Virus record (IMG/VR): IMGVR_UViG_3300045988_106448
Reading direction: 5' to 3' (one strand)
DNA length: 64,000 nt
DNA from: a virus
The position numbers and the translations under genes are program-made. The notes below the pieces were generated by a model. That model was not told where the DNA came from. It did not search any database and saw only the letters and a program-made list of their open reading frames with translations. Positions within the stretch are counted from its first letter, which is position 1; each line of letters opens with the position of its first letter. Of the stretch, positions 2,807 to 54,041 are shown piece by piece.

Positions 2807-4537
2807 ATGACAGGAAAGAAAATATCAGAGCTACAGGCTCTAACGGAATTAACCGGGACAGAGATTATCCCAGTGGCCAAGGACGGTCAGAATTACGGGG
2901 TGGAAACGCTTGCCTTGCTGGGAATAAGCGTTTATGATATCCCAGAGCCCCTTGACGACAATTATATATACACGCCCGAACAACTAGCTGAAATAAAAAA
3001 GAGCATCGAGGATGGTAAAATAATTCGATTCGGTGGTTGGTCAATGCCCACTGTTTATTTTTTAGAAGATGATGGTGAGATGGTTTTTGACATTGACAAT
3101 GGTGATTGGAGTAGGGTAATATTCACGATAAAGGCTAACGGGGAGTGGGAAATTAACCCACCGGTTGATTTTTTCAATTATGTCGTGGAAATGCCCAACA
3201 TAGTAGAAGGCGAAGAACTAACGGGCACGCTTCCGGCAGAGACTTTCGGCGATCTTTTAGAAAGGTTAAAAAGATCGGGTAATGTCATGTTTAGATACCC
3301 GCAGGCAGGTGGTTCACACCCGGTAAATCAATATGATATTGGAATTTCGTTCAGCTATTCCCAAACGAACGCCACGATCATTCACGCTAAAGGCACGAGG
3401 GAGTTTTCTATTATTCCGAGCGGGAATTACACGGATAGACCAGTTGTCTCGAAGCAATATCAATTGATTACCACTCGGTTGAATGATTATATCACTGACG
3501 TGAGTAACTTGTTTGGAAAGCTGGCAGTAAGAAGTGATAAATTCACGGATGAGAAAAATACTCAAGGTAATGGTTATTTTAATTCGAATGGAATTTTAGT
3601 ACAAGTATCTGGTGCTGGATTTATATATCAGAAATTAGAAATTGATTCGTCTAAAATTTATCGTATTAGACAAATGGTCGGAAATTACCCAATAGTTTCT
3701 GCGCTAGTATTATTTGATGAACATGATGAAATAATTAGTACCGTACCTTACAACTATCCATCGGCAAGTTCTGATAAATATTTCGTGTTTGCTGGGGTAC
3801 ATAGTATCGGTATTTCTTTTGTTGGAGTAGATAATAATTCCCGGTTAGAATCCTTCGATATTCAGGACCTCACCACCGTTCTCAACACCCAGCAAGGAAA
3901 CCGTGCCTTGTACGTTGCCGCCGGGGCTGTTTATAATCAAAATACAGGCTTCTACGAGCTAAACGGGCTAACGGATATAACGGAGGAGGAGATGAAGGTG
4001 ATTTATGTTCAAACAAATCACATGGACTATATTGAAAATATGAACGATGTCTTTTCAGGCCTTAATTTTAGAACAAATTTAGGGTTTAAACATCTAAGGA
4101 GAACAAATAACCGGATTTTTAATTTAAAAAATGCTTTTAGGGAAAATGTAAATTTGGAAGTATTAAAATTGGGTAATAGTACCAATGATATTTGGGTGAT
4201 GAAATGCTCGGATATGCAAGATTTTGTTACTCATTGTAGGAACCTTAAAAAAATAATAGGATATATAGAATGTCCTGTTGCTGTTAATTTTTTAAGTACT
4301 CCTTTATTAGAAGAAATAAGATTTAAAAATATAGTAAGAAATTTTGGTATCAAGGATTCCCCTCTCATCAGCCTCGAATCATTGCAATACCTGATCACTA
4401 ACGCCGCCAACACCTCCCCGATCACGGTTACAGTTCACGCTGATGTGTACGCCAAGATTCAAGATGAAACGCAAACCGAGTGGCACGCCCTGATAGCGTC
4501 AGCTCAAGAGAAGAACATAACATTCGCAACCGCTTAA
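2807..4537 (+). CDS. Hypothetical large protein, 576 aa, possibly a structural or fibre protein
   Basis: Long ORF with ATG start. No recognisable catalytic motif. Confidence 0.6.
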   Translation: MTGKKISELQALTELTGTEIIPVAKDGQNYGVETLALLGISVYDIPEPLDDNYIYTPEQLAEIKKSIEDGKIIRFGGWSMPTVYFLEDDGEMVFDIDNGDWSRVIFTIKANGEWEINPPVDFFNYVVEMPNIVEGEELTGTLPAETFGDLLERLKRSGNVMFRYPQAGGSHPVNQYDIGISFSYSQTNATIIHAKGTREFSIIPSGNYTDRPVVSKQYQLITTRLNDYITDVSNLFGKLAVRSDKFTDEKNTQGNGYFNSNGILVQVSGAGFIYQKLEIDSSKIYRIRQMVGNYPIVSALVLFDEHDEIISTVPYNYPSASSDKYFVFAGVHSIGISFVGVDNNSRLESFDIQDLTTVLNTQQGNRALYVAAGAVYNQNTGFYELNGLTDITEEEMKVIYVQTNHMDYIENMNDVFSGLNFRTNLGFKHLRRTNNRIFNLKNAFRENVNLEVLKLGNSTNDIWVMKCSDMQDFVTHCRNLKKIIGYIECPVAVNFLSTPLLEEIRFKNIVRNFGIKDSPLISLESLQYLITNAANTSPITVTVHADVYAKIQDETQTEWHALIASAQEKNITFATA

Positions 4538-42627: not shown

Positions 42628-44727
42628 ATGATAAGATTTAATGAGGATGGGAAGCTGTCGCATAAGCAGCTTGACGCCGTTTTCAACACCACATTCAACG
42701 TCCTGGAGGCTCTCCCTACCAAGGCGTTGAATCAACTGTTGGACGGGTATGGCGGTGATGTCGATGAAATGATGAACGAGATATTTAAGCAAACGAATCA
42801 GGTGCTTAATTTAAACCATACCTTAGAAACCGAACGTCTTCAGTACGTTGATTGTCTTACGGAATCAATGGATGAAACGTTAAAGGTGAAATCTTACAAT
42901 TATTTCAAGACGACCATGCTGCCTTCCTTTAGACAAGGGTGGAGAAATTTAGAGTGGGGTAATATGGTGCAGTTATATCCTAGTAGTGCGTACCTTGCCG
43001 CTCGTTCACATGGAAAGTGTTTTATTGCGGGCACTCCAATTTTAATGGCAGATTTCACGGTTAAGAACGTGGAGGACATTTACCCCGGCATGGAAGTAAT
43101 GGGGATAGATTACACGCCTCGTAAAGTGCTTACCCGACATATAGGTGAGGGGCAAATGTTTAGGGTAGAACAAGAGAATGGCATCCCCTACGTGGTGAAT
43201 TTCTGGCACGTGATGTGTTTGTATGACACCAAGAAGAAAGCGTATGTGGAAATGCCGATGAACGAGTTTTATAAATACCCGGTAAAGAAGCAGCGTCGTT
43301 TTCAGGGGTATCGGGTATTTAGTCCGGACACACCAATCTTTGAAAAGAGTGATATTAGAGTGACTTGCATTGGTAGGGATTCTTATTACGGTTTCATGAC
43401 AGATGGTGATCATTTGTTCCAATTAGAAGATGGAACAGTGGTGCATAATTCTTACGAGTTTTGTTACGCCTTTCCATTGTGGAGGCTGTACACCTACAAA
43501 CGCCCCACGTTCATGAGGGCGGACACTCCCGATAATAAGAATCGTCAAGAAACTTGTATTATTACTAATACGGAAAAGTTGGGTAAGGAGCATATTGATA
43601 AAATTGCGGAGGAAATTAAAATTAATGATGCTCTAGGCTATCGTATTAACCCGAACGGAAAGGCGTCACTTGCTGCCACGGGTATAGAGGGGGAGAACGG
43701 TACGAAATTGCACTTGCGTGGAAAGGATGGGTTTATTCGTGGTTTGCACGTGGGGGCGGCGGTGAGCGATGACTTACCTGACGAATCCAGTATATACAGT
43801 TTGGAACAGCGTGAGAAATTGATTGATTTGTTCAACGGTACGATTTCACCTATTGTTGAGCCATACGGGTATAATCTTGTGGATGGAACCCCGTATCAAG
43901 AGAATGACCTTTACGCTAAGCTGAAAGAAGACCCCAAGTTTAAAGTATTCGAATACCCGGCAGTCTTTCCTGATGGACGTTTGCTCGCTCCCGACCGTTT
44001 CACGTTTAAGAAATTGATGGAGGAAAAACAATCATTGGGAACTATGGTGTTTAGCCGTGAGTATTTGGTTGTGCCAATCAGTGACGATAGTACGATATTC
44101 CCGTGGGAAATTCTTATGCGTAGCACGTATGGAATGGAAAAGTATATGTTAGTGAATAACATAGAATCTTTTCCTATTAAACTAGCCAAAGTAGTGATTG
44201 GGTGCGACTTTGCTGTTTCCGGTAACGTGGGGGCGGATTACACTTGTTATTCCGTTTGGGGTAAAGATTTGCTAGGGAATTATTATCTCCTATATATTTA
44301 TCGTGAAAAGGGGCTTTCTCATAACGAACAGTTGAATAAAATAATGCAGCTAGACCGTAGCTTTAAACCAAGCGAAATCGTAGTAGAAAATAACGGTTTC
44401 CAAAGCATACTTGCGGATATGGCACGTCAACAGGGTATTAGAAATATTACACCATTTACCACCACAGCCGGAAATAAGAAAGACTTACGTACTGGGTGGG
44501 TGTCGTTGGCAGCGTTGTTCGAGCGTGGGGCGATAAAATGCCCGTGGCATACCGATAGCCGTAAACAGGTCGAGCAAATGTTCGGGGAATTCAATAGTAT
44601 TGCATTTCGTCCGGACAAGGGAACGCTAGAAAGTATTAGCGGGCATGATGATACTGTGTCATCGGCGTTTATGGCTATTAACAAGTTGAGAGAGGGAACT
44701 ATTAGAGTAGTAGTAGATTCAATTTAA
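42628..44727 (+). CDS. terL: Terminase large subunit, ATPase plus RNaseH-like nuclease, interrupted by an in-frame mini-intein
   Basis: The P-loop 'AARSHGK[intein]SYEF' is reconstituted after intein removal. The C-terminal nuclease motifs 'VIGCDFAVSGN' and 'SGHDDTVSSAFMA' are typical of terminase nuclease domains. Confidence 0.75.
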   Translation: MIRFNEDGKLSHKQLDAVFNTTFNVLEALPTKALNQLLDGYGGDVDEMMNEIFKQTNQVLNLNHTLETERLQYVDCLTESMDETLKVKSYNYFKTTMLPSFRQGWRNLEWGNMVQLYPSSAYLAARSHGKCFIAGTPILMADFTVKNVEDIYPGMEVMGIDYTPRKVLTRHIGEGQMFRVEQENGIPYVVNFWHVMCLYDTKKKAYVEMPMNEFYKYPVKKQRRFQGYRVFSPDTPIFEKSDIRVTCIGRDSYYGFMTDGDHLFQLEDGTVVHNSYEFCYAFPLWRLYTYKRPTFMRADTPDNKNRQETCIITNTEKLGKEHIDKIAEEIKINDALGYRINPNGKASLAATGIEGENGTKLHLRGKDGFIRGLHVGAAVSDDLPDESSIYSLEQREKLIDLFNGTISPIVEPYGYNLVDGTPYQENDLYAKLKEDPKFKVFEYPAVFPDGRLLAPDRFTFKKLMEEKQSLGTMVFSREYLVVPISDDSTIFPWEILMRSTYGMEKYMLVNNIESFPIKLAKVVIGCDFAVSGNVGADYTCYSVWGKDLLGNYYLLYIYREKGLSHNEQLNKIMQLDRSFKPSEIVVENNGFQSILADMARQQGIRNITPFTTTAGNKKDLRTGWVSLAALFERGAIKCPWHTDSRKQVEQMFGEFNSIAFRPDKGTLESISGHDDTVSSAFMAINKLREGTIRVVVDSI
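43018..43449 (+). mobile_element. Mini-intein (Hint domain, 144 aa, no endonuclease domain) inserted in the terminase P-loop
   Basis: Begins 'CFIAGTPILMADF' (block A, Cys1) and ends 'DGTVVHN' followed by Ser+1 ('SYEF'). Excision rejoins GK-S of the Walker A motif. Confidence 0.75.
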
Positions 44728-47360: not shown

Positions 47361-47831
47361 ATGGAAAACGAATATCGTATTAGTCACGAACAGTTCCTAA
47401 TTAATCTTCAGTTAGAGTACCTAACTCATAGATTAAGATCATTGATTTACCGAACAGCGTCTTACGCTCAGGTGGCGGCAGATATAGCATCTAAGAAAAG
47501 ATCGAAGATAGAGGATTTGGGAAAGAAATTTGGGATACGGACAATCTTTAGTCCGGGCTTTGACGTATTAGGGTTTGTAAACTTATATTTCTGGTCGGGG
47601 CGGGGTTTACCGCACTTCCAATATAAGGATGAGGAACAAAGAAGAGTACAAGGTAATTATGACAAATGGTATATTTTGTTTCGTGGAACACGAGTGAAAT
47701 ATAAAGGCAGGAGAACCGAAGTTGTTTCGAATAATCCTGTCCGGAAAGAGGTAATCGTCAAGACTCTTTCTGGCAATCAATTGGCGAAATATAGTGAATT
47801 AACAATTAAAAAAGATTTCGAATGGATTTGA
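47361..47831 (+). CDS. Hypothetical protein, 156 aa
   Basis: ORF with ATG start. Confidence 0.4.
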   Translation: MENEYRISHEQFLINLQLEYLTHRLRSLIYRTASYAQVAADIASKKRSKIEDLGKKFGIRTIFSPGFDVLGFVNLYFWSGRGLPHFQYKDEEQRRVQGNYDKWYILFRGTRVKYKGRRTEVVSNNPVRKEVIVKTLSGNQLAKYSELTIKKDFEWI

Positions 47832-48076
47832 AAATTGTAAACCACAGTACACATGAATTGCCCGTGTACAAGACAAAAGATTCGGCAGGAGCCGATTTAA
47901 GAGCGTTCTTACCTGAAGAGAAAGTTATTTACCTGCAACCGGGGGAACGTCGATTAATCCCTACTGGATTACACATGGCTATTCCGGAGGGGATGGTAGG
48001 ATTTATTTGCCCTCGTAGCGGTATGGCGGTAAAACAAGGTTTGACCGTTATTAACGCTCCGGGAGTAATAGACGCT
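47822..48076 (+). CDS. dut: dUTPase exon 1 (motifs 1-2 and the first half of motif 3, ending ...GVIDA)
   Basis: 'SAGADLRA' (motif 1), 'CPRSGMAVKQGL' (motif 2), 'GVIDA' (start of motif 3). The reading frame then hits a stop 7 codons into the insertion. Confidence 0.75.
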
Positions 48077-48946
48077 AAACTTTTAATGACTGCCTAAGAT
48101 GTATCAAAGGTTCTTTATATTAATTTTGGTAACTTTGCATTCAAATAATAATGCTATGGGGAAATTTGATAGAGAACCAAATTGTCAATGTCCAATTTGT
48201 GGAATTAAAATGTGGGTTAAACCTTCTTCTTTAAGAAAGGCGAAACATGGGGTTTGTTGTTCTATGGAATGTTCTAGGAAATTACGTTCAAATTTTATGA
48301 CAGGTGTAGGGAATCATCAGTTTGGGTTGACAGGAAATTTGAATAGTTCCTTTAAACATAATGAGAAAATAAATTCGGCAGGTTATGTTATGGAAAATGT
48401 TCCTGGACACCCTAAAGGTGGAAAAATTCGAGAAAGGTCTAAAACAACTTATATTTTGAAACATAGATTAATTATTGAAAGAAATTGTGAAAAGTTTCCT
48501 CAAGAATTATTTGAAAATATAGGGGGTTGGATAGTTTTAAAAGATTGTTATGATGTTCACCATATAAATGAAGACAGAACTGACAATCGGTTAGAAAATC
48601 TTGAAATTTTAACTCGAGGTAAACATACTGCAATCCACAATTTAGAAAAGACAATTATAAGAGATGATACTACGGGTAGAATAATTGGTGTCTTTAAACG
48701 AGGTGAATTGCTGGGAAGTCCAGAGGTGGATAATCAGCAGCCAAGCATTAGTAGTAATACTTTTGAAGGTTCAACGACTAACAGCCGAATCCAAACAGAT
48801 AATGCTGAGGATAGTAATGCTGACACGAGTGCCTCGCCCCTATTTATAGGGTGAAGATATAGTCTGAACTTTGCAAATAACCTAAAAGTAAAGCAAAGAA
48901 ATAATAGGATAAAGAGCCTATTAGTGTAACAACTCCACATAAATTG
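48077..48946 (+). mobile_element. Group I intron-like intervening sequence of 870 nt carrying an HNH homing endonuclease ORF
   Basis: The 5' exon ends in U (gacgcT) and the insertion ends in G (aaattG). Precise joining recreates GVIDA|DYRGDV, dUTPase motif 3. The downstream exon has no ATG. Confidence 0.65.
48099..48854 (+). CDS. Intron-encoded HNH homing endonuclease (HNH_3-like), 251 aa. The true start is possibly the M at 48156.
   Basis: 'CQCPICG...CCSMEC' zinc finger and 'YDVHHINEDRTDNRLENLEILTRGKHTAIHN' HNH core. The C-terminal 70 aa may be read-through of the intron core. Confidence 0.65.
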   Translation: MYQRFFILILVTLHSNNNAMGKFDREPNCQCPICGIKMWVKPSSLRKAKHGVCCSMECSRKLRSNFMTGVGNHQFGLTGNLNSSFKHNEKINSAGYVMENVPGHPKGGKIRERSKTTYILKHRLIIERNCEKFPQELFENIGGWIVLKDCYDVHHINEDRTDNRLENLEILTRGKHTAIHNLEKTIIRDDTTGRIIGVFKRGELLGSPEVDNQQPSISSNTFEGSTTNSRIQTDNAEDSNADTSASPLFIG

Positions 48947-49141
48947 GATTACCGTGGAGACGTGGGTGTGCCTCTAATTAATTTGGGACAGGACGTTGAG
49001 AAAATTGAAGATGGCGACCGTGTGGCACAAATTGTTTTCGTGCCATTCGTGCAGGCGAATTTTCAGGTGGTAGCAACCGAAGCTGATCTTGGAGAAACTG
49101 AACGTGGTCAAGGAGGATTTGGACATACCGGGAAGAATTGA
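48947..49141 (+). CDS. dut: dUTPase exon 2 (second half of motif 3, motifs 4-5)
   Basis: 'DYRGDVGV' completes motif 3. 'RVAQIVF' is motif 4. 'RGQGGFGHTG' is motif 5. In frame with exon 1 after removal of 48077-48946. Confidence 0.75.
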   Translation, partial: DYRGDVGVPLINLGQDVEKIEDGDRVAQIVFVPFVQANFQVVATEADLGETERGQGGFGHTGKN

Positions 49142-49238: not shown

Positions 49239-49943
49239 ATGGCAAACGCATTAGCAACTAGAGTAAAATTCCGTAAGTATTCGGCAGAGCAACTTCAGAA
49301 CGTTATCAACAATGAGGAATCAAACGAAGTAGAAATTCAGGTAGCGACAGAGTTATTGGAAAAGATGGGTGGAGCACCCGCACCCAAAGAAGCCCCGGTA
49401 GCCCCCGCAAAGAAAGAGGCTCCGAAGGTAAAGAAAGCCCCGGCTCCTAAAAAGGAAGAACCGAAAGCTGAGAAAGAAGACAAGGCTGAAAAGGAGTTAC
49501 CCGCTGACAAGTCACCGGAAGCGGCTGCAAAACGTCAGAACAAAAAGACAACGGAATACGTTTCGGATGAACAATTGACTCCGGCAGAACAAGCCCGCTT
49601 AGACAAGGCTGAAAAGGAGTTTGATGAACGCCAGAAAAACCGGAAAACCCCTTCCAAGTCTGACAAAACGATGAAGGAGAAGGCTCCTAAGACTGAAAGA
49701 GCAACCAAGCGTGAAAATCTTGAGGAATCAAACGAAGTACCGGGCTTGAAGGTTGGTAGCCAAGTAACCTTGAAAGAAGGTTCCGAGGTAGGTACGATTA
49801 CCCGTGTATATCTATCTTCGGATGGTAAAGAGAAATGTATGGTGAAGTTTGGTGATGCCAAACCAATCAAGAAGCGTGTGACGGCTGTGGAACTCGCAGA
49901 AGAAGCTAAACCGAAAGCCGCCCCGAAAAAAGCTAAGAAATAG
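49239..49943 (+). CDS. Histone H1-like low-complexity K/A/P/E-rich protein, 234 aa
   Basis: 'APAPKEAPVAPAKKEAPKVKKAPAPKKEEPKAEKEDKAEKE' and a C-terminal 'KPKAAPKKAKK'. Promoter-like motif upstream. Confidence 0.5.
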   Translation: MANALATRVKFRKYSAEQLQNVINNEESNEVEIQVATELLEKMGGAPAPKEAPVAPAKKEAPKVKKAPAPKKEEPKAEKEDKAEKELPADKSPEAAAKRQNKKTTEYVSDEQLTPAEQARLDKAEKEFDERQKNRKTPSKSDKTMKEKAPKTERATKRENLEESNEVPGLKVGSQVTLKEGSEVGTITRVYLSSDGKEKCMVKFGDAKPIKKRVTAVELAEEAKPKAAPKKAKK

Positions 49944-50674
49944 TGAGCCCCACTATATATCTAGTCAAAGGTATTTCAGGAAGTGGCAAATCAACAAGGG
50001 TTTACCTATTCTTGGAATACCTTGAATCATTAGGGCTAGAATTGACACCCTTTAAATTTAAAACACTTGACGGAAAAGAAAAGGAAGTAGGAGTTTATTG
50101 TGAGGATTTGGATTTGATTTTCGTTGGGAAGTGGTACGAAAATGGCGGTGTACGCCGTTGGCAGGGGCACGACAGTATGACGGGGCGGTTATGTCATTCT
50201 GAAGGGCTTAGCTACTTCCTAAAGAGTGTTGCACAAAAGGGTCACAGTGTTGTTTTGGATGGTGCGGGTACGACGGCAACATGGCGGCTTAGACCCAAAT
50301 TCCTATTTGAGGACAACGGGTTTAAGAGTATTGTTCATATACGGTATGATTACAAGCCGGAGCAGTTGCAAGAATATTATGACCGGATCGAATACCGTTC
50401 TGGCGAGCCTCCCAAGGGGGATAGTATGTGGCGTAAAAGTAAAACCTTCCTACATGACTATCAAAAGGCTGTAGAAGAGGCTAAGATGGTTGTATCGGCA
50501 GGTTGCCACGTGTCTTTACATGATGAACCATACGATACCCCGGTTTACGATTTGGGTGTTAGAATTTTGGAGCACGTGGGTTTGGAAGACGTGCAAGATG
50601 AGTTCATCGCTTATTGTCAAAATTCAGATTATCTAATTAAAAACTCCTTTAATGAATTCCAGAAAATAAAATGA
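49943..50674 (+). CDS. P-loop nucleotide or nucleic-acid kinase, 243 aa. Candidates are a dNMP kinase or a 5-hmdU DNA kinase-like enzyme.
   Basis: Walker A 'VKGISGSGKSTRV' at residues 8-20. Apparent GTG start overlapping the upstream TAG (no in-frame ATG before the P-loop). Size matches T4 gp1-type dNMP kinases. Confidence 0.5.
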   Translation: MSPTIYLVKGISGSGKSTRVYLFLEYLESLGLELTPFKFKTLDGKEKEVGVYCEDLDLIFVGKWYENGGVRRWQGHDSMTGRLCHSEGLSYFLKSVAQKGHSVVLDGAGTTATWRLRPKFLFEDNGFKSIVHIRYDYKPEQLQEYYDRIEYRSGEPPKGDSMWRKSKTFLHDYQKAVEEAKMVVSAGCHVSLHDEPYDTPVYDLGVRILEHVGLEDVQDEFIAYCQNSDYLIKNSFNEFQKIK

Positions 50675-51459
50675 AATTTCGAGGGCGTATATATTGTATA
50701 GAATGTACTGTAAATCATAAGTGGTATATTGGTCAAACTTCTAGAAGTTTACAAGTTCGGATGAATGGGCATATCAAGTTAGCTCTGAGGGGAGGGGAAT
50801 TTGCTTTAAGTCGTGCTATACGAAAATACGGCGTTGAAAACTTTGTAATCGAGGAAATCATGTGGGTTGAGGCTCCTAATAAACATTCTCTAAAACAGAA
50901 ACTCGATTTTCTGGAACGCCATTTTATAGCCCGTTACGACACGAAACATACGGGCTATAATATGACGGAAGGAGGAGAAGGTGTATTAGGAATTCAATTT
51001 GATGAAGAGTCTAGAATAAAAATGTCTGAATCTGCTAAAAATAGATGCGATGAAAATTTTAGAAGAAGACAATCTATTGTTGCTAAACGTTTATGGCAAA
51101 AGGAATCTTTTCAAAAGTTAAGGTCAGAAGCCGCCCATTTGAATTTATTAAATAAAGAAGTTCAGAAAAAGATGGGTTTGGCTCGCCGAGGATTAAAGTT
51201 TACTGAAGAGCATAAGAAGAAAATAGGTTTAGCCGTAAGCGGGGAAAGGAATGGTATGTATGGGAAAAGCCACCCAAAAGAATTTATTGAAAAATTTACT
51301 AAGAAAGTTTATCAATATACTCCAGAGGGGGTTTTAGTGAAAGAATGGTTTTCTATTATTGATATTAAAAGAGAATTGAAAATAGGCAGAAAATGTTTAA
51401 AGAAAGCTATTGCAAATCAATTTATTTATCATGGTTATATTTGGAAATTTAAAAGATGA
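50671..51459 (+). CDS. GIY-YIG homing endonuclease, free-standing, with NUMOD-like C-terminal DNA-binding repeats
   Basis: 'GRIYCIECTVNHKWYIGQTSRSLQVRMNGH' (GIY...YIG...R...H) and 'GYNMTEGGEG'. C-terminal 'KMSESAKNR', 'KIGLAVSGERNGMYGKSH'. ATGA overlap with the upstream gene. Confidence 0.7.
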   Translation: MKFRGRIYCIECTVNHKWYIGQTSRSLQVRMNGHIKLALRGGEFALSRAIRKYGVENFVIEEIMWVEAPNKHSLKQKLDFLERHFIARYDTKHTGYNMTEGGEGVLGIQFDEESRIKMSESAKNRCDENFRRRQSIVAKRLWQKESFQKLRSEAAHLNLLNKEVQKKMGLARRGLKFTEEHKKKIGLAVSGERNGMYGKSHPKEFIEKFTKKVYQYTPEGVLVKEWFSIIDIKRELKIGRKCLKKAIANQFIYHGYIWKFKR

Positions 51460-52454
51460 AAAAGAATAAAATTATTCCAGTCCCTAACGAAAATTTTCAA
51501 TATTATTTGTATTGGATTACTAAAAGAATGGAAATTTTTTGGAACAAATACGAGGGTAAACCCGCCCCATGGACGGACGATCCTATATTACAAAAATATA
51601 AATTTTGTAATACGTACAGGTGCCTCGACAGAGTTAGTCAGTACCTGTTGAGCCACGTGATTTACAACGGTAAGGATTACGAACCGGAAGATATGTTTTA
51701 CCGCATATTGTTGTTCAAACATTTTAACAAGATAGAAACATGGGAAGCGATTGAAAAAGAATTAGGGGATATTACCCTTAATGTGGAATTAGAAGACATT
51801 GCCAAATGTCTTGATGATATGGTAAAACGAGGCATTACCATTTATGGAAGTGCTTATATTATTAATTGTTGTTTCTACCAATTACCGGAGTATTCCTACA
51901 TGAAGGGGATGTCTAAACACCGGGCACACTTTAGCGTGTTTCAACGTGAAATTTTTGACAACGGGCATATTTATGACTTCCTAGACGCACAGTCATTAGA
52001 GGAGTTGTTTTGGGTATTCCGTAAGATGAAAATATACGGGGACTTTACGGCACAACAATACGCCATTGACATGAATTACAGCCCTCTGTTTGACTTTAAC
52101 GAAAATGATTTTGTTATAACCGGACCGGGTTCAATTCGAGGAATTGAGAGGACTTTTCAGAATGCCCGTGGGTGTGATTACGTGGGTGTGATGAAATGGG
52201 TTCTTGCCCATTTTACGGAGTTGATGTATGAACAAGAAAAGGAGAAAGGTTTCACATTTCGTCCACTTCCTAATCGTATGCCCACGTTGATAGACTTGCA
52301 AAATTGCTTCTGTGAAACGGATAAATATTTGCGGGGTGCCGGGGTTGAAACAGAAGGATTAAAAGTGAAAGGCGAGCGGATTAAACACACTTACGAGGCG
52401 AACCGTAATAAAATTAAATACACGTTGCCACCTAAGTGGAATGTGAAACTTTAA
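51456..52454 (+). CDS. Hypothetical protein, 332 aa, inside the nucleotide-metabolism cluster and a candidate base-modification enzyme
   Basis: No recognisable motif. Flanked by a P-loop kinase and a GIY-YIG endonuclease upstream and a ThyA-family enzyme downstream. Confidence 0.45.
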   Translation: MKKNKIIPVPNENFQYYLYWITKRMEIFWNKYEGKPAPWTDDPILQKYKFCNTYRCLDRVSQYLLSHVIYNGKDYEPEDMFYRILLFKHFNKIETWEAIEKELGDITLNVELEDIAKCLDDMVKRGITIYGSAYIINCCFYQLPEYSYMKGMSKHRAHFSVFQREIFDNGHIYDFLDAQSLEELFWVFRKMKIYGDFTAQQYAIDMNYSPLFDFNENDFVITGPGSIRGIERTFQNARGCDYVGVMKWVLAHFTELMYEQEKEKGFTFRPLPNRMPTLIDLQNCFCETDKYLRGAGVETEGLKVKGERIKHTYEANRNKIKYTLPPKWNVKL

Positions 52455-52465
52455 TTTCAAGAACC

Positions 52466-53521
52466 ATGTTTTTACAAGCTGAAAATTTAAACGAGGCATT
52501 TATTTGCCTTTGTCAAGAACTATTTTATCACGGCGAAGACGTGACCCGGCGTGGCTTTAAATGCCGGGAAATTCCTCGAGCGGTGTTAGTGGAAATTACC
52601 AATCCAGTAGACCGTTATGTGCGTGTGCCAGAGCGCAAATGGAATAAGGTGTTGGGGTGGGTTGAATCCCTATGGATCGCTCGTGGGGATAATGCTTTAG
52701 AAATGCCTGCTGCCTATGTTAAGAACCTGAAGAATTTCAGTGATGACGGCATACACATGAGAGCCGGGTACGGTCCGAGATTCAGACATTATGGGGATAA
52801 CGGGGAATTTAAACCATTGTTTAATCTTCCTATTTCAACAGGATTTCCCGTTGACCAACTTAGATTTGTCATTGAAAAATTTAAGGAGGACATTGACACA
52901 CGGGAAGCGGTGGTTACTATTCATGACCCTGTAATGGACGATTTCGGTCCCGTAGATAACAGTGGGGTGGCTCCTGTTTTACGAACAAAGGACACTCCAT
53001 GCACCCGGTCAATTCATTTCATGATTGTGAACGGTGCGATGAATTGCTACGTTGACATTCGGAGTAATGATGTTGTATGGGGCTTTAGTGCCGTGAACGT
53101 GTTTAACTTTACGTTAATGCAGGAATACGTCGCCGCTCTGGTAGGCGTGCCCGTGGGTAAGTATTACCACAAGGCTGATAACTTGCACGTGTATGAAAAC
53201 TTCTTACCGTTGGTGGAGGAGATTGCCAAGAAGTACACGGGTAACGAATACCCTTCTGGAACCCGGTTCGCTTACAAACCCTCCTACAAAACTCTTCAAG
53301 AGTTTGATGCTTACATAGGTAAACTCAGCACCTTCGAAGAATTGTGTAGAGGGAAGAAAGTTCCGGCAGAAGAATTGGAAGTGATACTTAGAACCTTTAC
53401 CGATGACTTATTTAACGATTGGGCTAAAGTGTTCTTCACCTACTGGACTAAACACCCGGTAGAGTTTACCAATCCGTTGTTAAACGAAATATTTTGTTTT
53501 GATGAATTACGAGAAAATTGA
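52466..53521 (+). CDS. Thymidylate synthase-family enzyme, either ThyA or a dUMP hydroxymethylase-type pyrimidine C5-transferase
   Basis: 'PCTRSIHFMIVNGAMNCYVDIRSNDVVWGFSAVNVFNF' aligns to ThyA 'PCHAFFQFYV...[23 protein letters not shown]', with the catalytic Cys in PC(T/H) and the uracil-specifying Asn conserved. Longer and more divergent than canonical ThyA. The ORF-track start is a GTG; the ATG is at 52466. Confidence 0.6.
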   Translation: MFLQAENLNEAFICLCQELFYHGEDVTRRGFKCREIPRAVLVEITNPVDRYVRVPERKWNKVLGWVESLWIARGDNALEMPAAYVKNLKNFSDDGIHMRAGYGPRFRHYGDNGEFKPLFNLPISTGFPVDQLRFVIEKFKEDIDTREAVVTIHDPVMDDFGPVDNSGVAPVLRTKDTPCTRSIHFMIVNGAMNCYVDIRSNDVVWGFSAVNVFNFTLMQEYVAALVGVPVGKYYHKADNLHVYENFLPLVEEIAKKYTGNEYPSGTRFAYKPSYKTLQEFDAYIGKLSTFEELCRGKKVPAEELEVILRTFTDDLFNDWAKVFFTYWTKHPVEFTNPLLNEIFCFDELREN

Positions 53522-54041
53522 CATCCTATTAGGGATGAAGGATATCCAAAGGCTACCAAATACCCCCCACCACCGGGGGTATAACCTTTTGGAACATGGT
53601 TTGGTAGTTGGAATGTTATTCCGGTGGTTCGCTTCAGAAGAGAACGTGGCGTACGACATTAACGTGTTTGACAAGGTTCTCCTACATGATTTCGTTGAAA
53701 GCGTCACGGGGGATTTAAACGCTTGTGTTAAGAAGTTTAACGATAAGACAGCCAAGGCGTGGGACATTATTGAATTTGAAATATGCCACGGCAACCCGGT
53801 ACTCGCCCCCTATTCTGATCAGGAAATAAAGAAAGCCATGACGGATCAGCAATATCGTCTATTTAAAATGTGCGATTATCTTGATTTGTGGATTTTCTGC
53901 CGGAACGAAATGGCGTTGGGAAACCGAGCGCAAAAGTTGGTTAAATGTTTGTCTAACTGCGAAAAGCTATTGGCTCACTATTCTCATGAATGGGCTGAGT
54001 TTAAAAGCATCGCTAAATTCATGAAACAATATGAAGGGTAA
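53502..54041 (+). CDS. HD-domain phosphohydrolase, YfbR-like 5'-deoxynucleotidase family
   Basis: 'HHRGYNLLEHGLVVG' plus 'LLHDFVESVTGDLN' gives the H..H...HD...E..GD metal-binding signature. The ATG at 53502 overlaps the upstream gene end. Confidence 0.55.
   Translation: MNYEKIDILLGMKDIQRLPNTPHHRGYNLLEHGLVVGMLFRWFASEENVAYDINVFDKVLLHDFVESVTGDLNACVKKFNDKTAKAWDIIEFEICHGNPVLAPYSDQEIKKAMTDQQYRLFKMCDYLDLWIFCRNEMALGNRAQKLVKCLSNCEKLLAHYSHEWAEFKSIAKFMKQYEG

Follow-up and report, generated by a model that had tools for sequence, protein, structure and literature searches.

A predicted mobile group I intron of the crAssphage type in the dUTPase gene of a phage that is not crAss-like

The locus considered here raises the question of whether a dUTPase gene (dut) that gene callers break into two fragments plus an endonuclease gene can still encode a normal enzyme, and of what kind of element separates its two parts. 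It belongs to the IMG/VR virus record IMGVR_UViG_3300045988_106448, of which the whole stretch of 64,000 nucleotides was analysed and is called the window in this text. An earlier note, made from the letters of the sequence, had read the interruption as a group I intron with precise boundaries, and this reading is now supported by a covariance-model match, helix covariation, the P1 and P10 pairings and intron-less relatives. The element is very probably a mobile, IA-like group I intron that carries the gene of an HNH_3 homing endonuclease in the loop of helix P1, and recognition of the intron restores a normal dUTPase. The boundaries, the ribozyme structure with its covariation, the endonuclease family, the alleles that lack the intron and the traces of recent homing among related phages were all computed here.

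A dUTPase gene interrupted in catalytic motif 3

The gene and its insertion are laid out as follows.

47822 to 48076, + strand: dut exon 1, 85 codons, with dUTPase motifs 1 and 2 and the first half of motif 3, ending in GVIDA
48077 to 48946, + strand: insertion (group I intron) of 870 nucleotides, recognised by Rfam RF00028 and by covariation, absent from the relatives L003 and L004
48095 to 48097, + strand: UAA codon that stops exon-1 ribosomes six codons inside the intron
48947 to 49141, + strand: dut exon 2, DYRGDVGV...GFGHTGKN, motifs 3b to 5, with its stop codon at 49139-49141

The open reading frame (ORF) of the first exon (47822-48097) reads ...PGVIDA, continues for the six codons KLLMTA and ends at the TAA of 48095-48097; its register is that of the intron-less relatives L003 and L004, and a stop codon lies 0-6 codons past the 5' splice site in all five dUTPase introns compared. 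The ORF of the second exon runs from the TTG at 48944, as (M)DYRGDVGV...RGQGGFGHTGKN, to the stop at 49139-49141 and has no other opening codon. Deletion of 48077-48946 recreates the motif G-V-I-D-A-D-Y-R-G-D within a joined dUTPase of 149 residues, which matches the Pfam family of trimeric dUTPases (PF00692) with an E-value of 5.8e-28 over profile positions 4-129 of 129 and aligns with the solved dUTPase 3mbq without a gap over the junction (E 5e-39). The insertion point lies between the codons of Ala85 and Asp86, inside catalytic motif 3 (G-V-I-D-A / D-Y-R-G), and the predicted junction in the spliced RNA is ...GUAAUAGACGCU/GAUUACCGUGG, or GTAATAGACGCTGATTACCGTGGA when written as a 24-mer. 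The earlier account of the gene is borne out in each of these respects: an exon 1 with motifs 1 and 2 and GVIDA that soon meets a stop, an exon 2 that resumes in the same frame 870 nucleotides downstream without an ATG (TTG 48944 alone opens it), a motif 3 and a full-length Pfam match restored by removal of exactly 48077-48946, and junction bases that are T (U) at 48076 and G at 48946.

The same note had proposed a search with the joined exons, and this protein search found contiguous dUTPases of 149 residues in intron-less relatives, P0001 (97% identical) and P0002 (88% identical), together with P0102, the exon-1 fragment of another intron-bearing relative. The window and the contigs of the relatives share a syntenic order of helicase, primase-like gene, 156-residue gene, dut, 234-residue gene and 5-hydroxymethyldeoxyuridine (5-hmdU) kinase. 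Across the junction the intron-less DNA reads GATGCC/GATTACCGTGG in L003 and GACGCT/GATTACCGTGG in L004 (consensus in intron-less relatives GAYGCY/GATTACCG), which is exactly the predicted exon junction. The related dUTPase contigs are about 102-110 kb long.

Ribozyme, guide sequence and predicted splice sites

Rfam model RF00028 matches 48647-48888 with 58.7 bits (gathering score 50; E 6.4e-14 for the region and 2.6e-12 for the window) over model positions 1-253, and it is the sole Rfam match within the 64-kb window. The covariance-model search of 48077-48946 that the earlier note had suggested therefore yields a group I match above the gathering score. Related introns were collected with a 19-nucleotide word of the core in IMG/VR, which led to nine of them, five also above the Rfam threshold; covariation was assessed on an alignment of nine family members by means of an RNAalifold consensus to which P7 was added by hand. 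The consensus comprises P3, P4, P5, P6, P6a, P7.1, P7.1a, P9 and P9.1, with 98.5% of the cells paired and changes on both sides in 19 of the 45 pairs, and these double changes fall in P3, P5, P6a, P7.1a, P9 and P9.1. None of 500 shuffles matched the observed pairing, and slid controls were 29-44% paired. Additionally, the minimum free energy (MFE) fold of a mini-intron from which the ORF had been deleted recovered P1, the P1 extension and P3 to P9.1. The core helices are the following.

48699-48705 with 48830-48836, + strand: P3, which encloses P4 to P7.1a (coordinates of P3 to P7.1a from the MFE fold); double changes
48709-48714 with 48734-48739, + strand: P4
48719-48722 with 48727-48730, + strand: P5; double changes
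48740-48742 with 48768-48770, + strand: P6
48745-48760, + strand: P6a; double changes
48776-48780, + strand: P7, 5' strand, paired with 48860-48864
48782-48785 with 48819-48822, + strand: P7.1, CAGC with GCUG
48789-48792 with 48809-48812, + strand: P7.1a, AUCC with GGAU; covariation
48838 to 48851, + strand: P8 hairpin CCCUA UUUA UAGGG, directly 5' of the stop codon UGA 48852-48854 of the HNH gene
48860 to 48864, + strand: P7, 3' strand, UAGUC, invariant in all nine sequences
48869-48874 with 48893-48898, + strand: P9; double changes in 3 of 4 pairs
48904-48908 with 48917-48921, + strand: P9.1, with a conserved GAUAAAGAG loop; double changes in 2 of 4 pairs
48112 to 48125 with 48653 to 48664, + strand: P1 extension, a long-range stem that closes the ORF-containing loop, its 3' strand within the HNH codons for TIIRD

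P7 is the helix that binds the guanosine in group I introns generally. The sequence and length of P8 vary in every relative and the hairpin is always kept, as read by eye from the sequences; by the same kind of reading, a stem of 10-15 bp comparable to the P1 extension exists in the related introns of crAssphage (L001) and L012, and a simple hairpin takes its place in the ORF-less introns L017 and L015. The presence of P7.1 and P7.1a between P7 and the 3' strand of P3, along with the absence of P2, points to an IA-like subgroup, an assignment made from this helix content. Judged by its Rfam match and predicted structure, the insertion is a group I intron. Other kinds of element were considered and rejected. 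An intein would require an open frame, whereas the exon frame meets a UAA six codons into the insert, and HNH_3 is the sole Pfam domain in the insert ORF. As for a group II intron, an Rfam scan that admitted E-values up to 10 returned RF00028 alone for the region, and the insert ORF has no Pfam match but HNH_3. The insertion of a free-standing endonuclease gene was likewise rejected.

The splice sites are defined by an internal guide sequence.

48070 to 48076, + strand: 5' strand of P1, exon AGACGCU, 7 of 7 pairs with 48687-48693, U48076 lying in the U·G pair at the 5' splice site
48680 to 48693, + strand: internal guide sequence, of which 48687-48693 (GGUGUCU) pairs with the end of exon 1 (P1)
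48680 to 48686, + strand: P10 strand AAUAAUU, which pairs with GAUUA of exon 2 (48947-48951), 5 bp
48946, + strand: terminal guanosine (omega-G), the last base of the intron; all seven dUTPase introns end in G

The guide sequence usually lies near the 5' end of a group I intron. A search by eye in the first 80 nucleotides of the present one gave only 3-bp matches, and the guide was found 610 nucleotides downstream of the 5' end, just before P3; it stands 12 nucleotides upstream of J3/4 in the five dUTPase introns compared. All seven dUTPase introns form P1 with 7 of 7 pairs and the U·G pair, and the guide covaries with the end of the exon, as listed here with the covarying bases in brackets.

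Window: exon AGAC[GC]U, guide G[GU]GUCU
L012: exon AGAC[GC]U, guide G[GC]GUCU
crAssphage: exon AGAC[UA]U, guide G[UA]GUCU
L015: exon UGAC[UC]U, guide G[GA]GUCG
L017: exon AGAC[CC]U, guide G[GG]GUCU
cr50_1: exon AGAC[UG]U, guide G[CA]GUCU
cr1_1: exon AGAC[UC]U, guide G[GA]GUCU

P10 comprises 5 bp in the window and 6 bp in L012, and 2-4 bp in crAssphage, L015 and L017. Since the P1 register is common to the seven introns, the 5' splice site is placed after U48076, and the same register together with the terminal G places the 3' splice site after G48946. Boundaries shifted by 1-3 nucleotides could still keep D-x-D-Y, but they would sacrifice the 5' U or the 3' G as well as the P1 register of all seven homologs and were therefore rejected.

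With these elements, splicing would begin when exon bases 48070-48076 of the dut pre-mRNA pair with 48687-48693 to form P1 with its U·G at the splice site, and a free guanosine bound at P7 would attack after U48076. G48946 would next occupy the guanosine site, P10 (48680-48686 with 48947-48951) would align exon 2, and ligation of the exons would give an mRNA for the normal 149-residue dUTPase. An alternative is that no splicing takes place and that the dUTPase is made as two polypeptides, the second opened by the in-frame TTG at 48944, or that the gene is a disrupted pseudogene. Such a TTG could indeed open exon 2, and splicing of the window intron is itself a prediction from sequence. On the other hand, an intact ribozyme is present, with an Rfam score over the threshold and compensatory changes; homologous introns do not keep a start codon just ahead of exon 2 (AAG in cr50_1, CTG in L015); the break point falls inside catalytic motif 3; and both exons are still conserved, with 97% identity to the contiguous gene. 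The unspliced alternative thus appears extremely improbable.

The HNH endonuclease gene and its path through the ribozyme core

The loop of P1 contains the endonuclease gene and, in front of it, a promoter-like box.

48156 to 48854, + strand: ORF of the HNH_3 homing endonuclease, 232 residues plus UGA, within the P1 loop
48130 to 48137, + strand: TAACTTTG, a match to the Bacteroidota -7 promoter box TAnnTTTG, 18 nucleotides before the HNH ATG

The protein matches Pfam HNH_3 (PF13392) with 31.6 bits against a cut-off of 24.8 as well as several PHROG HNH families, and it is 45% identical to gp35 of crAssphage (E 4e-52). The zinc cysteines C12, C15, C35 and C39 and the HNH motif residues H135, H136, N148, H157 and H161 (at about nucleotides 48558-48638) are invariant in 54 homologs, so that the earlier assignment to an HNH_3-type endonuclease with a zinc finger holds. 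Its start codon is most likely ATG 48156 (MGKFDREPNC..., conserved in L012) rather than ATG 48099. Searching PDB sequences with the protein yielded no meaningful match, and an AlphaFold (AF2) model built on the homolog alignment is confident for residues 1-181. The TAACTTTG box might, speculatively, be a putative internal promoter: boxes of the form TAnnTTTG stand 20-25 nucleotides before the ATG in L012 and crAssphage and none is found there in cr50_1 and cr1_1, with 51 such boxes on the + strand and 16 on the - strand across the window and a chance occurrence, by our own estimate, of about 6% per leader.

The HNH ORF meets no stop before the core and crosses the guide sequence (codons G178-V179), P3, P4, P5, P6, P7, P7.1, the 3' strand of P3 and P8, an overlap of about 170 nucleotides that ends at UGA 48852-48854. 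The earlier note had seen the ORF run on into the presumed core, and the overlap extends in fact to nearly the whole of it; what had escaped the note is that the ORF occupies the P1 loop and precedes the internal guide sequence. Since the ORF passes through the ribozyme core, no single RNA molecule would be translated into the endonuclease and folded as the ribozyme simultaneously.

Endonuclease ORFs that run on through core helices until they meet an in-frame stop have been described as 'core creep', with listed overlaps of at most 81 nucleotides (PMC3073962). Among the cases tabulated by Edgell, Chalamcharla and Belfort (2011), the Synechocystis tRNA-fMet intron has an ORF in P1 with a 61-nucleotide overlap and the large-subunit (LSU) intron of Synechococcus lividus an ORF in P1 with an 81-nucleotide overlap (PMC3073962). 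These resemble the window intron in that an endonuclease ORF in P1 extends into the core helices, but the overlap in the window is about twice the largest one listed and recurs across an intron family with different endonuclease types. By sequence motif, the endonuclease ORFs of the family read as HNH, GIY-YIG-like and LAGLIDADG-like. All examined members that carry an endonuclease gene share one reading frame at the entry of the ORF into the core.

The question is then whether the tail of about 50 residues encoded by the core results from such creep, as a disordered extension, or is a selected functional module, for instance for DNA or RNA binding or for coupling of translation and splicing. 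The shared frame of entry, despite seemingly different protein families, speaks for a module, as do the tail motifs present in 109 of the 120 closest HNH homologs and the lengths of the P5 region (29, 32, 38 and 44 nucleotides), which differ by multiples of 3, although this last test agrees in 4 of 6 length classes with p of about 0.2 by our estimate and is not significant. Conversely, residues 192-232 are predicted to be disordered (predicted local distance difference test, pLDDT, below 50); where the tail is conserved the underlying RNA is conserved as well, and peptides encoded by variable helices are unrelated to one another. The frame is also open in ORF-less introns, namely in 3 of the 4 ORF-less members of the close subfamily, and in L009, L010 and L014 it shifts or stops early. 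Core creep that adds a disordered extension is most likely the origin of the tail, and a selected module is quite unlikely.

A search of a protein database with the 53-residue ribozyme-encoded tail alone returned 21 short ORFs and no long endonucleases, so this search is of no use for counting endonuclease families; it led instead to the ORF-less introns L015 to L017, which occupy the same dUTPase site and have a simple hairpin where the window has the endonuclease gene. In L015 (2990-3323, 334 nucleotides) and L017 (809-1113, 305 nucleotides) the core frame is open too, and gene callers list the open core frame of ORF-less introns as a 'protein' of 77-79 residues. A stronger form of the idea holds that the core is truly dual-coding, the same 150-170 nucleotides (P3 to P8) encoding a selected C-terminal module common to at least three seemingly unrelated endonuclease families. 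This is decidedly unlikely; if it were true, the module could serve as a built-in switch between endonuclease translation and splicing or as a common docking peptide, and new endonuclease genes could be captured through in-frame fusion to the core-encoded module.

Probable homing, related introns and genome setting

Comparison of close relatives reveals how the intron may have moved. Once the intron is taken out, 33 of 1850 positions distinguish the window from the intron-less L003, 16 of them in the stretch from -57 to +42 around the junction; the intron-bearing L005 and the intron-less L004 show 61 differences clustered from -143 to +107. The window and L005 are about 20% divergent elsewhere and yet identical from -107 to +35, with 3 of 870 positions different in their introns. 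The common block is the following.

47969 to 48981, + strand: block common to the window and L005, with 108 nucleotides of exon 1, the intron and 35 nucleotides of exon 2; co-conversion tract

The pattern shared by the window and L005 is that expected from recent homing with co-conversion of the flanking exon, and it argues indirectly for an endonuclease that is active in nature. In this process the HNH product would be expected to nick or cut the intron-less dut of co-infecting relatives at the conserved motif-3 sequence, and repair from the intron-bearing copy would transfer the intron with flanking exon sequence. L005 also carries two changes in the 3' strand of P3 at its positions 3729-3735 (window 48830-48836), GCCUCG to ACCACG, which produce an A·A mismatch and an Rfam score of 52.3 and may reflect a sequencing error or early decay.

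Once fixed, homing endonuclease genes often degenerate, and the intron might accordingly splice and yet be an immobile fossil with an inactive HNH protein and vertical inheritance only. ORF-less versions of the intron (L015, L017) and the A·A mismatch in P3 of L005 fit such a history. It is nonetheless very unlikely for the window: the ORF is intact with all catalytic residues and zinc ligands kept, the intron is polymorphic among near-identical phages (present in the window and L005, absent from L003 and L004), it is near-identical in two backgrounds about 20% apart that share a flanking exon tract, and the same dUTPase site is occupied in phages of unrelated families.

The closest known system is found in crAssphage. 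A megablast of the region against 50,697 phage records matched the core of the p-crAssphage intron only (85% identity over 181 nucleotides), and a more sensitive search added cr50_1 (MT774375) and cr1_1 (MT774380) of the family Suoliviridae, with the same annotation. In BK010471.1 (p-crAssphage, Carjivirus communis) gp34 is annotated as 'putative Dut dUTPase, contains intron insertion' and gp35 as 'putative intron-encoded HNH endonuclease'; a crAssphage dUTPase split by an intron-encoded HNH endonuclease is mentioned in PMC7551546, and dense group I introns in other crAss-like genes are described in PMC7886860. The novelty of the locus had therefore been overstated, since the same arrangement was already annotated at the homologous site (BK010471 gp34/gp35, MT774375, MT774380), and the window element is a further example of the crAssphage-type dUTPase intron and not a new kind. 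Both share the insertion site in dUTPase motif 3 (between D-x and [D/G]-Y-R/K-G), a homologous core (72-80% identity over most of 267 nucleotides) and a homologous HNH protein whose ORF occupies the P1 loop and extends into the core. They differ in that the phage of the window falls outside the crAss-like phages (the nearest matches of its Pol III alpha-type polymerase, at about 39%, are in Cellulophaga, Tenacibaculum and Chryseobacterium phages), in that the crAssphage dUTPase is very divergent whereas the exons of the window encode a conventional dUTPase of 149 residues, and in the guide sequence, which matches the local exon in each case. A single intron lineage is thus found at one and the same dUTPase site in Bacteroidota phages of unrelated families. 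The crAssphage copy (L001 / L002) went undetected by RF00028, both with E allowed up to 1 and with the gathering score as threshold, but it is homologous by alignment and covariation with all helices kept, from which it follows that covariance-model screens under-count this intron family.

Related introns were also seen in other host genes (L007, L008, L009, L010, L011, L014, and further L045, L052, L054, L070-L072, L113, L125 and L134). Each has an ORF that is located 5' of P3 and continues into the core, in most cases for 47-76 codons; by motif these ORFs are GIY-YIG-like, LAGLIDADG-like or of other HNH types.

Comparable systems exist in phages outside this lineage. The T4 introns of td, nrdB and nrdD (sunY) are group IA introns with I-TevI, I-TevII and I-TevIII, located in the conserved catalytic sequence of nucleotide-metabolism genes, and they home with co-conversion of flanking markers and have stop codons just within the intron. 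The window intron resembles them in its IA-like structure, its place at a conserved catalytic site of a phage nucleotide-metabolism gene, its homing endonuclease, its co-conversion signature and its early stop, whereas the T4 ORFs lie in P6a or P9 loops and not in the P1 loop, and the host gene here is dut. The I-TevI ORF overlaps the core by 20 nucleotides (PMC3073962), as against about 170 here. In the DNA polymerase intron of the Bacillus phage SPO1, a phage group I intron likewise encodes an HNH-family endonuclease, the nicking enzyme I-HmuI, with its ORF in P8 and a 9-nucleotide overlap (PMC3073962, Table 1); unlike in I-HmuI, a zinc finger at the N-terminus of the window protein precedes an HNH motif towards the C-terminus.

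Several points weigh against a functional, mobile intron. P4, P6, P7 and P7.1 are invariant among the nine aligned members and consequently uninformative for covariation, and P6a of the window contains a C·A mismatch. The unusually long overlap of ORF and core could in principle compromise either function. The best Foldseek match of the model in the PDB is to an intron endonuclease of the HNH family, I-HmuI (1u3e), which fits the assignment, but it is weak and not statistically significant (E 0.13, 21% identity). Moreover, the literature searched contains no report of splicing or endonuclease activity for the crAssphage dUTPase intron, nor of experimental splicing of any dUTPase intron.

Directly downstream of dut lies a gene set of the kind associated with thymidine hypermodification (49943-54041), with a second endonuclease gene inside it.

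49943-50674: 5-hmdU DNA kinase 2 (HMUD2)
50671-51459: GIY-YIG/NUMOD3 homing-endonuclease gene, flanked by the two 5-hmdU kinase genes, start and stop codons overlapping
51456-52454: 5-hmdU kinase helical domain
52436-53521: thymidylate-synthase-like gene
53499-54041: YfbR-like HD deoxynucleotidase

This gene content suggests that the phage probably replaces or modifies thymidine, and the dUTPase presumably supplies dUMP to the adjacent module of 5-hmdU kinase and thymidylate-synthase-like genes. In L003 (97%-related) both kinase genes adjoin and the GIY-YIG gene follows them; the GIY-YIG gene is a second, free-standing mobile endonuclease of variable position. As for the rest of the window, 52 of the 53 ORFs of at least 150 residues are on the + strand, the exception (729-1319, TTG start) lying inside a + strand ORF; no tRNA genes were found in the 64 kb; and the gene of the terminase large subunit (42628-44727) lies directly upstream of the helicase and primase genes.

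Knowledge of how group I introns work is unchanged by the window intron, and what remains of interest is the unusual extent to which ORF and ribozyme overlap, the fact that the P1 loop houses the ORF, and the distinct co-conversion tracts left in natural phages. With an overlap about twice the largest entry of Table 1 in PMC3073962, it is well suited to testing the idea of core creep. The intron family further offers evidence from nature for recent homing between phages about 20% apart, with co-conversion tracts mapped, and shows the spread of a single lineage across unrelated families of Bacteroidota phages, crAss-like and not.

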